A program made the position numbers. Positions 27,001 through 33,000 of a stretch of 64,000 nucleotides of DNA are shown here, in pieces; positions within the stretch are counted from its first letter, which is position 1, and every line of letters begins with the position of its first letter. Source of the DNA: Candidatus Latescibacterota bacterium (lineage in GTDB: Bacteria; Latescibacterota; UBA2968; GCA-2709665); assembly GCA_965116875.1 (NCBI GenBank), contig OZ220733.1:4000001-4064000 (forward strand), in the 5' to 3' direction.

Positions 27001-30000
27001 GGCGTGAAGATCGAAGTCTTGCCTCTGCCCGCGGGCGCCCCCGCCGGGTTCAGCGGCGCGGTGGGCCGGTTCGACGTATCCGTCGAGGCATCGCCCGTTG
27101 TCGTCCAGGCGGGAGACCCGATTGAGGTGAAGGTAACGGTGCGCGGGACGGGTAACCTGAATGCCGTGGGCGAACCCGTTCGGCCGGAAGGCGACGCGTT
27201 CAAGTTCTACGATCCGAACTCAACTGTGAGTACGGGTGACTCGGATGGACGAATCGGCGGCGAAAAGAGCTTCGAATACGTCGCGATTCCCACCCGGGAC
27301 GGAAAACTGAATATCGGTCCGTTTCTGCTCGCCTATTTCGACCCTGAGGCACATCGATATCGGACAGCGCGTTCGCGTGTGGTTTCGGTAGACGTGAAGC
27401 CGGGCAGGCCGCAGGCCGCTTCCGGGGCGGTGATGAGCCGGAGAGAGATTGAGATGCTCGGACGGGACATCCGTCATCTGAAGCCGGATCTCGGAAATCT
27501 GGAGGATCACGCCCGGCAGGTTGTCAGGAGCACCTGGTTCTGGACCGTTCAGCTCGTGCCCGTCCTCGGATTTCTCGGCATTTTTGCATACAAGCGCCAC
27601 CGGGACCGGATCATGGGTGACGTGGCTTATGCCCGAAGACGGCGTTCGGGTTCCGAGGCCAGGAAACGCCTGACGCAGGCGCGAAAGCGACTCCACGAGA
27701 AAGACGGGGTGGCGTTCTACGTAGAAATCGACCGCGCGCTGGCCCAGTTTCTGGCCGATCGATTGAATCTTCCGGTTGCCGGCATGACCCGTGAGTCGGC
27801 GGCGCGGGCGCTTCGAGACGTGGATGTGCCTGATCCAATCGTCTCGCAAGTACAGGATGTCCTGGTGCGCTGCGACTACGCGCGTTTCGCCTCGGTCCGG
27901 ATTCCGGAGAAGGAACGCGAGGAAATCTACAACGCCGCGGCGTCGCTCATCGACGTGTTGGGAGCCAGGATATGAGGAACGGGCGCACACGGACCTGCTG
28001 CGTCCGGCGGTCTCTCCGGGCCCTCGATTCCGCCGTTCCTGCGGCAGGTTCGGCCTTGCCGGCGGTACTGGCATTTCTGCTGTTCACCGGCGCCGCCGGA
28101 GGCGCCGGGACCGGCGCGAGAATCTACAACGAGGCGAACGCCCTTTACGGGCAGGGCGAGTTCAAAAAGGCGGCCGTTCGGTACGAGGAAGTCGTCTCAC
28201 GGGGCGTCCGGAACGGTTACGTTTTCTTCAACCTTGGCAATGCCTATTTCAAAGCGGGAGAAACGGGCCGGGCGATTCTCGCCTATGAGCGGGCTCTCAG
28301 GTTGATGCCGGATGATGAAGACGTAATTGCGAATCTCAGGTTTGTGAACGCCGTGAAAGTAGACAGGAGTCCGGATGACAGCGCAAATCTTGTAACCCGC
28401 TTCCTTTCGTCCGGCTACGGGCTGCTGAGTGCTGATGTGCTGGCCGTATCCGGAAGTGTCTGCCTGTACCTGGCGGCGGCCGCCGGGGTGTTCTGGCTTC
28501 TTGTGCCCTCGCGACGCTCGTTGTGTATCGGTTTGCTGGTGCTGGCGGGCATGGGGTTGGGCGGTTCGGGCGCGCTGCTGACGTACCGGGTATATAGTGA
28601 AAACGCCGTTTCGGAAGCGATCGTCATTTCGGACAAGGTGAGGGGACGCAGCGGGCCAGGGGACGATTATCTTCTCGTGTTTACGATCCATGAAGGTACG
28701 AAGGTAACGATTGAACGGGTTGAAGAACGCTGGTTTCTGGTAAGGTTGCCAAACGGCATTGGCGGGTGGTTGCCCGGGAATTCGCTGGAGATCATCTGAA
28801 CCGTGGAAGGCGGGAACGCATTCGCGGGCGGCGTTTGGGATTTCGGTGGTTCCGGGCAGCGAAGTCCGGTTTCCATTGCGATTTGGCTACTCACGCGGTC
28901 AGGGGGTTGGCGTGACGTCGTTCAAGGCGTGGTTTCGATGTTTTAGAGGTTGCAGCGGCCGTTATCCCCTGACGCAGATCGTCTACGCGTGTCCGAAATG
29001 CGGCGGTTTGCTCGAGGTGCGCCACGATATGGAAGCGCTTCGCGACCGATCACCTGCGGACTGGCGTCGCCTGTTCGATCGGAGGTATATGCGCACGGAA
29101 TGGCCGTACGGCAGTTCCGTATGGGGCAAGAAGGAAATGGTATGCCCCGTTGTGGACGACAACAACGTCGTGTCGATGTACGAAGGGGGCAGCAATCTGT
29201 TCTGGGCCGAGCGTCTCGGCCGGGAGATCGGAGTCGAGGACCTGTGGGTCAAGCAGTGTGGAAACAGCCACACCGGTTCGTTCAAGGATCTGGGCATGAC
29301 GGTGCTGGTGTCGATGGTTCGGCAAATGGTCTTCGAAGGGCAGCGCATCCCCGCCGCCGCGTGCGCCTCGACCGGAGATACTTCCGCGGCTCTGGCGGCC
29401 TATTGCGCGCACGCCGGTATACAGGCGGTCGTGTTCCTGCCGCGGGACAAGGTTTCCACGGCCCAGCTGGTGCAGCCGATGGCCAACGGAGCGCTGGTAT
29501 TGAGTCTGGATACCGACTTCGACGGGTGCATGAAACTGGTTCAGGAGATATGCCACAGGGAGAATATCTACCTTGCCAATTCGATGAACTCACTTCGTGT
29601 AGAGGGGCAGAAGACCGTAAGCGTGGAATTGTTGCAGCAATTCGACTGGGAACTGCCGCAATGGATCGTAATTCCCGGGGGCAACCTGGGCAACGTCAGC
29701 GCCCTGGGAAAGGGCTTCAGCGAGTTGAAGGAAATGGGCCTTGTCGACCGTGTGCCACGAATCGCGGTTGCTCAGAGTGCCCGGGCAAATCCGCTCTACC
29801 GGAGTTTTCTCAACGATTTCGACGCATTTGAACCTCTCAAGGCGCAATCAACCCTGGCCAGCGCCATTCAGATCGGGGACCCGGTCAGTACCGAAAAGGC
29901 GATTATGACCCTCAAGAACATCGGTGGGGTTGTGGAGCAGGCGACCGATCAGGAACTGGCGGACGCTGCGGCGAGGGTGGATCGAACCGGGTTGTTTTCG

Positions 30001-33000
30001 TGCCCGCACACGGGCGTGGCCTTTGCCGCGCTCTTCAAACTGGTGGACCGCGGCGTCATCCGGAGCGATGAGCGGGTTGTGGTGATATCGACCGCCCACG
30101 GATTGAAGTTCGCCGATTTCAAGATCAGGTACCACCAGGCTGAACTCGGCGCATACGACGTGGACCCGAACCATGCGAATCTGCCCTTGCAGTTGCCGGC
30201 GGAATACGGCCGGGTCCGGGATCAGATCTTTCGGACGCTCGATTTGAACGGTGGTTGACAGCGGCGATGGATTTGGTTACATTGATCGACCGGATTCAGT
30301 GTAGTGGTGATTTGAGGCATATTGCAGCCACTATAAAGAAATCGCTAAAAAGCTGATCACCCATACGATAGCTGGTCGCGTATTCAGGATCTCTGGGGCT
30401 TTTTGGCTTCAGTTTTTTTTTGTTGTTTCCGGAGGATGCAATGGCAGAGAAGCTATCGACGGATGGCGTCTGCAATTCTACCTGTGCCGTCCACGCGGGG
30501 GAAAACGGAGGGCATTGGGGGCATTCCCTTACGGTTCCGATCGCGCAGACGTCGACCTACGTTTTCGAAAACACCACAGCGGTGGACGATTTCGTGTCCG
30601 GGCGTTCGGCCCGACTCGATTACGGGCGCTACGGAAACCCGACGCAACAGATTGCCGAACGAAAACTGGCCGAACTGGAGGGTGCGGATTCGGCGCTGTT
30701 GTTTTCGTCCGGAATGAGCGCCGTGACGACGACCCTTCTGGGCATGCTGTCCACGGGTCACCACGCCGTGATTACCGACGACTGTTACAGGAAGACCGCA
30801 CAGTTCTGCGAGCAGATGCTGAGGAAGTTCGGCATCGACACGACTTTCGTGCCCGCAGGCGACTATGGAAGGCTGGAGTCGGCCATGCAGGAAAATACGA
30901 GAGTGGTGATTGCGGAGTCTCCAACCAACCCGCATCTGAATGTGATGGATCTCGAAAAGGTGGTCCCCATCGCCAAGGCGAAACGTGCGAAAGTCGTTAT
31001 TGACAGTACGTTTGCCACACCGTTCAACCAGCGTCCCCTGGAGTTCGGTGTCGATCTCGTCATTCACAGCGCGACCAAGTATCTGGGTGGGCATAACGAC
31101 CTCATCGCCGGCGCCGTTGCAGGATCCGAGCCGCTGGTTTCGGCCATAAAGGACTATCGTGGAATTCTGGGAGGCGTGATCGACCCACACTGCGCGTATC
31201 TGCTGATCAGAGGCATCAAGACGTTCCCGCTGAGGATGGTGCGTCAGAACGAGACCGCGCTGGCGCTTGCCCGTTTTCTGGAGGGGAACCCGGGGGTGCG
31301 GCAGGTTTACTATCCCGGTCTGGAGAGCCACCCGCACCACCGGGTTGCGCGGGAGCAGATGAGCGGGTACGGCGGCGTGGTGAGTTTCGATCTCAACGCG
31401 GACCTGGCAGGAACCATGGCATTCCTCGATCGCCTGGAGATTCCCTGTATTGGCGCAAGCCTGGGTGGGGTGGAGAGCATCGTCTCCCATCCGTCAACCA
31501 TTTCCTACTACGAAATGGAACGCGAAGACCGGATCGCCATCGGAATCAGCGACGAACTTGTACGTTATTCCGTTGGGGTCGAGGACGCCGAAGACCTGAT
31601 CGGCGACGTGGAAAGGGCGCTGGAGGGCGTATAACGGAAAGGAGATAAGGAGACGCGATTCGCGTCGCGTCGCGGGGTATGTTCGGTCCGTTTCTTGCAT
31701 TCGCGCTGCGCGCGCCACTGCAGGACGAGCGCTGGCGGCAAAAATTGCTGTTGGGCGGCTTGCTGTCCCTGCTGCCGAATCTGGCGCTGCTGCTTGGCGT
31801 CTTTATGGCATTGGGAAAGGTCTCCGGTATGCTCGCGCCGGTCGCGATCGTGTTCTTCGTTTTGCCGACTGTCGTTACCTGGGGATATGTCTATCGTGTC
31901 TTTGTCGACGCGTTAAACGGTCTGGAATTCCGACGCCTGCCCGAGTGGAACGACTGGCTGCGGTACGGTGCCGTTGGGGCCCGGCTTGGCGTAATCTACC
32001 TGGGATATCTGTTTCTGGTCGGTCTTGGTGCGCTCGCCGCGATGGCTGTATTCGGCCTGTTTCCTCCGGGCGAGGATCCAACCCGGCTGAGCGCGGTCAC
32101 GTTGCTGGCAATCGGCGCCGCCATGATGCTGTACGGGCTGCTTCCCATCGTATTCGCACGGTTCGCGGCCGAGCGCAAGATTTGGGCTTCGTTCGATCCC
32201 GGCGCGATCCTGTCCGACATGGGGCGGGCGGTTCGCGGGGGGAGATACACGCAGGCGTGTCTGGGGTTCTATCTCTGCTTCGGGCTGCTGCTCCTCCTGA
32301 ATCTGATATTGGGCGCGGTACCGCCGGTGGCCATGTTCGTGGGATCCATAGGCTCGTTTTATCTGATGGTGGTGTTTGCCTGGGTATTCGGATGGCTGAT
32401 CGGGATCCAGAGCGCGGATGCCCCGGGATCCGGATGAGATCAAACCTGCGCCCAGGCCGTATCGAGTACCCTTTTCGCGTTGGCGATCACGATTTCGGGC
32501 GATTCTCCTTCCATCGGAGAGACTTCGAAGCTCAGAACGGGGCGCTTTTCCGGATCCAGGAATCCGACGTCGAGCAGTTCGCTGAGAAACTCCACCGCTT
32601 CAGGTATATCGTTCTCGCCGTCTTCGCAGCCGAATCGAGGATGGTTGTCGCCGTAGGCCGGGTGATCCGGGTTTCGCATCACGCAGTTGCCGATATGGGC
32701 GTGTACCAGATGGTCACGGGCAATTCTCACGGCATATTCAGAGCTCTCGCCCTGCAGGGGGAAATGACTCAGATCCAGCATCAATCCAAAGTTGGAATAC
32801 TCCCGCCTGACCCGCGAAGACACCTCAACCGCCAGCGCGTTCGGGCCTACAAGACAATTCTTGCCAAAGGGAAGCCGGTCGAACGTTTCCAATACCACGT
32901 TCATGTTCCTGCCTGCCGCGTCATCGCAAAGGCGATAAAGTGAGTCAACCAGCAGGTCCACGCCCCGCTCACGGCCTCCGGGACCGGGGTCCGTGCCCGA

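Follow-up and report, generated by a model that had tools for sequence, protein, structure and literature searches.

Synthesis of methionine from O-phosphohomoserine (OPH) by way of cystathionine γ-synthase (CGS) is treated as a plant trait. Here we describe a bacterial locus that suggests a wider distribution. It lies in a 64,000-nt stretch of the genome of a Candidatus Latescibacterota bacterium (GenBank assembly GCA_965116875.1, contig OZ220733.1, forward-strand positions 4,000,001 to 4,064,000), hereafter the window, whose own positions serve as coordinates unless a genome or locus label is given. A gene for a plant-type threonine synthase (ThrC) is followed by a gene for a plant-type CGS, with a riboswitch of the SAM-II class, which recognizes S-adenosylmethionine (SAM), between them. 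We consider it likely that this locus is a bacterial OPH branch point at which the plant-type CGS makes the methionine precursor under SAM-II OFF control and, judging from its genes, the host probably makes methionine from OPH as plants do.

The closest described systems share parts of this arrangement. The plant threonine synthase (TS) is a dimer activated by SAM (PMC9081730, PMC3174156), while OPH in bacteria and fungi is assigned to threonine synthesis (PMC4523565). In E. coli, which proceeds through O-succinylhomoserine and the enzymes MetA, MetB and MetC, activated homoserine is likewise joined to cysteine to give cystathionine by an enzyme of the PF01053 superfamily. The Latescibacterota host differs in having no detected MetA or MetX to supply an acyl ester, and MetB falls outside the clade of the window CGS, carrying Y-G-G where the clade has Y-R-K. 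A bacterial homocysteine route starting at OPH has been described in Streptomyces (MetM/MetO; Hasebe et al. 2024, as cited in PMC13759103). As presented in that citing article, it resembles the route proposed here in its starting compound; the enzyme here is a PF01053 CGS, and the ThiS-like domain found in the host adjoins a CysM-type synthase. No description of a bacterial OPH-dependent CGS or of a ThrC–CGS pair was found in the literature searched, most subscription journals being outside its coverage. What is new in the window is a SAM-II switch placed between ThrC and CGS, together with the host's second ThrC and the MetA/MetX counts; the riboswitch itself is ordinary.

The ThrC–CGS locus and its two enzymes

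A preliminary description of the window, made from the sequence alone, had placed a ThrC gene, a SAM-II aptamer and a CGS-like gene in succession on the plus strand. Translation of the open reading frames (ORFs) and comparison with Rfam bear out this arrangement, and the peptides quoted there are all present: the ThrC blocks in the ORF ending at 30258, and YGRYGNPT and TDDCYRKT in the ORF ending at 31634. The features of the locus, in order, are as follows.

28912-30258, plus strand: plant-type ThrC, 448 aa, GTG start; an N-terminal zinc-ribbon-like segment with four cysteines, then a PALP catalytic domain
30255-30283, plus strand: sigma-70-like promoter, TTGACA, 17-nt spacer, TACATT; 10 of 12 positions match
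30294-30368, plus strand: SAM-II (SAM_alpha, RF00521) aptamer, 43.9 bits against a gathering score of 36
30344-30354, plus strand: aptamer 3' strand, GCUAAAAAGCU, whose alternative partner is GGCUUUUUGGC at 30397-30407
30393-30421, plus strand: hairpin resembling an intrinsic terminator, CUGGGGCUUUUUGGCUUCAG, with nine U; 8 pairs, loop of 4, −9.2 kcal/mol
30431-30436, plus strand: Shine-Dalgarno-like GGAGGA, 4 nt 5' of the CGS ATG; GGAGG is kept in aligned relatives
30441-31634, plus strand: plant-type CGS, 397 aa, ATG start, without an N-terminal regulatory extension

The 182-nt spacer between the two genes holds the promoter, the aptamer, the hairpin (30393-30412) and the run of nine U. The GTG start of ThrC agrees with the alignment of its homologues. 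The ATG at 30441 is most likely the start of CGS, since GGAGGA precedes it and the resulting 397 residues equal the length of close homologues (100% query coverage).

In a search of all solved structures, ThrC matched Arabidopsis TS1 (1e5x) with 554.2 bits (E 2e-165), as against 186.6 bits for the next-best solved threonine synthase, a bacterial enzyme; the bacterial alignments begin only at residue 77. Residues 8-440 align to TS1 46-476, with about 60% identity over the whole mature protein, and the PLP (pyridoxal 5'-phosphate)-lysine motif SFKD is kept. The N-terminal domain is present, residues 8-110 aligning to 1e5x 46-148 without large gaps. Within positions 1-75, 31-34 of 72-74 residues match those of three plant and algal sequences, and within positions 76-130, 39-41 of 55 do so. 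Domain scores are 188.6 bits for PF00291 and 218.5 bits for TIGR00260 (cut-off 167.1). Bacterial ThrC thus shares with Arabidopsis TS1 (1e5x, 2c2b, 2c2g) the N-terminal segment, the WPYGS.VW.KKE block and the PLP-lysine block. It differs in lacking a transit peptide and in keeping four zinc-ribbon-like cysteines, a motif of the N-terminal domain retained by the bacterial ThrCs and absent from the four plant and algal sequences compared; in addition, its host encodes a second ThrC of archaeal type.

Phylogenetic analysis gave the same assignment, as the preliminary description had anticipated. A very long branch unites ThrC with the TS of plants and algae, both in a tree of 36 rows that included the host's own paralogues (100% support in the Shimodaira-Hasegawa-like approximate likelihood ratio test, SH-aLRT) and in a more careful search of 33 rows without those paralogues (100/100). 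The bacterial members of this clade are exactly the ThrCs encoded upstream of a plant-type CGS or joined to one in a fusion protein. Outside it fall the host's three ThrC paralogues, the ThrB-linked ThrCs of Anaerolineae and Pleurocapsa, and the ThrB-fused ThrCs. SAM activation is the sole known functional mark of plant TS, and because in bacteria the plant TS clade occurs only beside plant-type CGS, we infer by analogy that the bacterial enzyme may be activated by SAM as well, a suggestion that we hold to be possible and somewhat doubtful. Three genomes from one genus of the phylum (G120, G138 and G146) carry two plant-type ThrC copies each, 65-68% identical to that of the window.

The second gene of the pair shows the same affinity. 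In the search of solved structures, CGS residues 13-396 aligned to residues 58-444 of tobacco CGS (1i41) with 407.6 bits; the next match, a methionine γ-lyase, reached 315.2 bits, and E. coli CGS/MetB (1cs1) 255.3 bits. The PF01053 domain scores 439.8 bits, and the protein reaches no NCBIfam equivalog cut-off, the best model being PRK08249 with 392 bits against a required 600. Among 30,854 matches in a search of 1.84 billion cluster representatives, plant and algal clusters stand near the top (Micromonas 6th, Phtheirospermum CGS1 8th), and UniRef names the plant and algal relatives "plant cystathionine gamma-synthase". A tree of 82 rows, made by quick search with SH-aLRT as its only support measure and without bootstrap, confirmed the claim of a plant-type CGS: a clade of 50 rows with 100% support contains five plant and algal CGS, the CGS domains of three fusion proteins and all 24 sampled bacterial loci. 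E. coli MetB and MetC, the host's own PF01053 paralogue and 29 other representatives fall outside.

In tobacco CGS, Lys261 carries PLP, Tyr163 is catalytic and Arg423 binds the carboxylate (PMC8428831). Residues K213, Y116 and R375 of the window CGS align with these, so that the two enzymes (tobacco CGS 1qgn, 1i41) have in common the PLP lysine, the catalytic tyrosine and the carboxylate-binding arginine along with YGRYGNPT and CYRKT. The clade has its own signature: YGRYGN(PT), Y-R/K-K/R after the PLP-stacking tyrosine, and S-[YF]-[YFW] where outsiders have S/T-H. The basic pair and YGRYGN occur in the window CGS and in 14 of the 15 other plant-type rows, the exception being one wheat paralogue with YSE; all nine aligned rows from outside the clade have Y-G-G or a small residue in place of the basic pair. 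This pair (CYRKT) presumably binds the phosphate of OPH. Plant CGS members are longer (460-544 aa), their match to the window CGS beginning at residue 68-154. The N-terminal extension of about 100-150 residues that carries MTO1 is a plant feature; the window protein has 12 residues before the conserved core (residue 13 corresponds to chain residue 58) and no MTO1 region, and its gene has a SAM-II riboswitch instead.

A predicted SAM-II switch before the CGS gene

The SAM-II match at 30294-30368 (E 1.3e-6 for the whole window) covers the full model, positions 1-79, and its alignment to the consensus retains P1, GAUUUGA, UUGCAG, UAAA and UCGCUAAA. It is the only SAM-II match in the 5.45-Mb genome, in which SAM-I has no match. 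The promoter at 30255-30283 is the only promoter-like site in 28700-31800, a region whose shuffled versions average 1.4 such sites. The stop codon of ThrC sits inside its −35 hexamer, and TTGACA is conserved in seven of eight aligned Latescibacterota loci. The interval between ThrC and the aptamer was found to contain no terminator; therefore, read-through from ThrC would meet the same switch. Upstream of ThrC itself, no riboswitch reached an Rfam gathering score in the window or in its relatives.

Downstream of the aptamer, the pairing of GCUAAAAAGCU (30344-30354) with GGCUUUUUGGC (30397-30407) has a RNAduplex energy of −15.3 kcal/mol, matched by none of 200 mononucleotide shuffles, and would act as an antiterminator. 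The same relationship recurs among relatives. Of 16 leaders, 15 contain a site complementary to the invariant aptamer 3' strand, CGCUAAAAAG, with energies between −10.6 and −16.7 kcal/mol; the site lies inside a hairpin followed by a U-run. No more than 2 of 200 mononucleotide shuffles equalled it in 14 of the 16 leaders. Terminator stems vary between relatives yet remain complementary, and the GCUUUUU core is conserved. In the minimum free energy fold of the whole leader the terminator hairpin appears, although the fold as a whole is uninformative (z = −1.07).

SAM-II aptamers usually have a promoter only a few nucleotides ahead of P1 (Corbino 2005, PMC1273637), and promoters together with intrinsic terminators after the aptamer are typical (Corbino 2005, PMC1273637; Barrick & Breaker 2007, PMC2258182). 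The window leader agrees with the class (RF00521) in its aptamer consensus, its promoter before P1, its terminator between aptamer and ORF, and the methionine gene downstream. Its layout therefore appears to be that of the usual terminator/antiterminator OFF switch, an ordinary member of the class, with its predicted direction taken from the arrangement of pairing strands. It differs in its host phylum, the lineages named in the passages concerned of PMC1273637 and PMC2258182 being alpha-, beta- and gamma-Proteobacteria, other proteobacterial lineages and Bacteroidetes, and in that the regulated gene is a plant-type CGS. In some relatives, moreover, two terminator-like hairpins stand in tandem after one SAM-II aptamer (leaders L086, L111, L113, L115, L116 and L123), most of them with the GCUUUUU core. 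The suggestion that SAM-type control of CGS here takes the place of MTO1 is upheld as regards layout, in that a leader of predicted SAM-II OFF type precedes a CGS with no MTO1-like N-terminal region.

SAM-II occupies the same position in seven of seven related Latescibacterota loci. Among 20 further genomes of the phylum it precedes CGS in ten, namely all eight from the family and order of the window and two in which ThrC is not upstream. In other Latescibacterota families ThrC and CGS lie 24-230 nt apart with no Rfam match between them. A SAM-I riboswitch precedes CGS in 7 of 16 loci searched in other phyla; two unrelated SAM aptamers have therefore been recruited to one gene family. The loci with SAM-I (L040, L041, L057, L065, L081, L087 and L094) come from Chloroflexota, a Pleurocapsa cyanobacterium and a proteobacterial metagenome-assembled genome (MAG). 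The notion of a pair split by a riboswitch thus holds for the window, where SAM-II lies between the genes, and is confined to part of Latescibacterota; in other phyla the pair forms a tight operon or a fusion, or is associated with SAM-I.

Homoserine activation in the host and its relatives

The host genome, a single contig of 5.45 Mb with an estimated completeness of 97.7%, was examined for the genes of threonine and methionine synthesis. It encodes thrB (282 bits), the homoserine dehydrogenase hom and metH (1653 bits). MetA and HcyBio have no match in this genome, MetX was not found (best match 22.9 bits), and neither was a full-length MetE. PF01053 is represented by only two genes, and MetY is therefore absent. 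The proposed check of the genome for metA, metX and thrB thus gave thrB without the other two. With thrB, hom and metH present and metA, metX, metY and HcyBio lacking, homocysteine most likely starts from OPH, and the simplest pathway that these genes allow would run from homoserine through OPH and cystathionine or homocysteine to methionine.

The model that we propose is founded on the gene identities, clades, genome content, linkage and conserved RNA elements described above; we infer from these that OPH is the substrate, that cysteine rather than sulfide is the second substrate, and that termination depends on SAM. Homoserine dehydrogenase and ThrB would supply OPH, which the plant-type CGS would combine with cysteine to form cystathionine, or with sulfide to form homocysteine directly. 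This step would be committed and is the only recognisable entry to methionine. The second PLP enzyme of the Cys/Met family is a candidate β-lyase, and MetH would complete the pathway. When SAM is bound, the aptamer 3' strand would be locked in the pseudoknot, allowing the hairpin with its U-run to form and transcription to end before CGS. When SAM is absent, the same strand would pair with the hairpin core, GCUUUUUGG, and transcription would continue into CGS. The plant-type ThrC, upstream and outside the switch, would compete for OPH and make threonine.

Several observations weigh against this model. Contamination of the assembly is estimated at 6.6%. The second PF01053 paralogue is a candidate β-lyase only, scoring best against methionine γ-lyases; methionine/cystathionine γ-lyases give 322 and 302 bits and β-lyases 285 bits. 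The host also encodes a second ThrC, of the archaeal PRK08197 type (596 bits against a cut-off of 303; G000:C1:4432342-4433508, L014:1333-2523), so that threonine synthesis need not depend on the plant-type ThrC alone. Among 14 control genomes the PRK08197 model matches Methanocaldococcus only, and in a sample of 151 Latescibacterota genomes this type is kept in 98, including 17 of 18 from the window's family and 29 of 30 from its sister family. The plant-type ThrC, on this gene content, is an additional threonine synthase that travels with CGS. Two further ThrC-like paralogues in the host could hide a MetM-like route. Of the 113 genomes in the phylum sample that carry a CGS of this clade, 22 also have MetX, and one family (f10) has CGS in 11 of 13 genomes, MetX in 10 of 13 and plant-type ThrC in none of 13. 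In a sample of 50 genomes of other phyla, for which MAG completeness is not given, strong MetX is found in 14, and weak MetX-like proteins in nine and MetA in two more; strong MetX is present in five of seven searched genomes with a CGS–ThrC–ThrB cluster. It may therefore be that O-acetylhomoserine is also a substrate for the CGS clade as a whole, or that such genomes run two routes. In vivo, furthermore, plant CGS takes acyl-homoserines as substrates. The idea of a bacterial version of the plant branch point is accordingly retained in part: plant-type clades, thrB without MetA or MetX, and SAM-II before CGS speak for it, while the second, archaeal-type ThrC and the co-occurrence of MetX with the clade in some lineages do not.

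These counts bear on the proposal that an unrecognised acyltransferase supplies CGS with O-acetyl- or O-succinylhomoserine, the proximity of CGS to ThrC being ordinary clustering of aspartate-family genes. MetX and the acceptance of acyl esters by plant CGS favor it, as does MetA, found in four more genomes of the phylum sample. We nevertheless regard it as improbable, as the one-contig host genome has no detected MetA or MetX and MetX is found in none of the 49 genomes, many of them single contigs, of the window's family and order (MetA in 4 of 49). In addition, CGS occurs as a fusion with ThrC or next to ThrB, two proteins that have only OPH in common; basic residues also replace G-G beside the PLP tyrosine, as in plant CGS. 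In 87 of the 113 phylum genomes with CGS, both MetX and MetA are lacking, and among the 19 genomes of other phyla with a ThrC–CGS operon strong MetX occurs once and MetA not at all. This distribution suggests that the pair replaces acyl activation mostly, not everywhere, the tie to a lack of MetA and MetX being strong where ThrC and CGS are adjacent.

If OPH is the substrate, the CGS-like enzyme might still be an OPH sulfhydrylase that uses sulfide or a thiocarboxylate to form homocysteine, with neither cystathionine nor a β-lyase involved. Plant CGS can use sulfide in vitro, and the only other PF01053 gene of the host resembles γ-lyases more than β-lyases. Even so, those scores do not decide its function and it could well be a β-lyase; the closest characterised relatives of the window enzyme form cystathionine, and a CysM gene with a MoaD/ThiS-like ORF shows that cysteine is made. 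On balance, a sulfhydrylase is unlikely, if less so than the use of acyl esters. A catabolic role as methionine γ-lyase or cystathionine γ-lyase is far less probable than either. Methionine γ-lyases supply the second-best NCBIfam model and the next-best solved structures, but the model score of 385 bits is far under its cut-off of 549.7 and the protein belongs to the plant CGS clade, apart from the other representatives; moreover, a SAM-OFF riboswitch is in keeping with a role in biosynthesis, and members of the family in several phyla are preceded by SAM-I or SAM-II.

The CysM-type cysteine synthase (360 bits) and the following ORF, whose C-terminal part is MoaD/ThiS-like, lie at G000:C1:3607159-3609128 (L017:1315-3284), with two HigA-like antitoxin genes just 5' of the CysM-type gene. 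The CysM/CysO arrangement uses O-phosphoserine. If this pair works in the same manner, phosphorylation may be the means by which the organism activates serine as well as homoserine. A route like that of MetM/MetO was considered for the host and rejected, because the only ThiS-like domain beside a PALP gene is the one adjoining this CysM-type synthase. No ThiS-like protein is among the ORFs listed beside the PRK08197-type ThrC; the surroundings of the other two ThrC-like paralogues were covered by ORF lists and one family scan.

Distribution and possible origin of the gene pair

The pair had at first been taken for an oddity of one genome; it is instead common. A pattern scan for CGS, with one genome counted per species, confirmed the plant-type enzyme in at least 598 species, and the phylum sample of 151 Latescibacterota genomes has CGS in 113 and plant-type ThrC in 108. 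At the level of loci, the best 80 of more than 600 CGS matches include Latescibacterota, Gemmatimonadota, Methylomirabilota/Rokubacteria, Binatia, Myxococcota, Acidobacteriota, Chloroflexota, Planctomycetota, Hydrogenedentota, Tectimicrobiota, Leptospirales and one cyanobacterium. In 34 of these 80 a ThrC with at least 60% identity lies directly upstream of CGS on the same strand. In nine a more distant ThrC is convergent with CGS and ThrB lies beside CGS, in one ThrB alone is beside it, in 31 neither is in the flanks, and in five the upstream flank is too short. The two enzymes also occur as single polypeptides: dozens of clusters, some named Nitrospira or Nitrospirae, contain ThrC–CGS fusion proteins of about 848 aa, with ThrC at residues 1-445 and CGS at 460-848. 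Other natural fusions join more distant ThrCs to homoserine kinase (PF00288) or homoserine dehydrogenase (PF00742) domains (proteins P0193-P0199 and P0203-P0216).

This distribution permits a tentative scenario, which we consider rather doubtful, for the plant branch point itself, which textbooks present as plant-specific. A two-gene module of bacterial origin, present in more than ten phyla in the form of an operon, a pair split by a riboswitch or one fused protein, would combine an OPH-using CGS with a SAM-activated threonine synthase serving as an overflow valve beside a housekeeping ThrC; the green lineage would have inherited both genes and later exchanged the riboswitch for MTO1. The trees do not settle where plants fall inside either the ThrC or the CGS clade, and therefore no donor lineage is claimed.

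Should the branch-point model prove correct, it would account for homoserine activation toward methionine in many genomes that seem to lack this step, among them the 87 of 113 CGS-bearing Latescibacterota mentioned above and numerous genomes of Methylomirabilota, Binatia, Myxococcota, Acidobacteriota and Nitrospirota-like bacteria. Pathway annotators would gain a sequence signature of the enzyme, and small soluble bacterial versions of two plant enzymes would become available for studying how SAM apportions carbon to threonine and to methionine. It would likewise become possible to test where the plant threonine/methionine branch point came from.

Sequencing runs that contain parts of the stretch are mostly labelled as sponge or coral reef metagenomes, mostly with small shares of its words; no RNA run is among those listed, and no habitat is claimed from them. 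Upstream of ThrC, window positions 24413-28799 (plus strand) hold three genes, overlapping or abutting, that resemble the last part of a Bat-type (aerotolerance-like) operon. One encodes a TPR protein whose long acidic tail is of low complexity, another a membrane protein of 610 aa, and the third a TPR and SH3 protein with a weak BatC match (35.5 bits). Directly 3' of CGS lies a gene for a DUF4013 membrane protein (31679-32437, plus strand), found in the same place in five related Latescibacterota loci (L030, L031, L064, L079 and L083). Farther downstream, four tRNA genes (33621-34551, plus strand) are followed by an ORF (34937-35476, plus strand) that appears NusG-like on a reading of its translation only.

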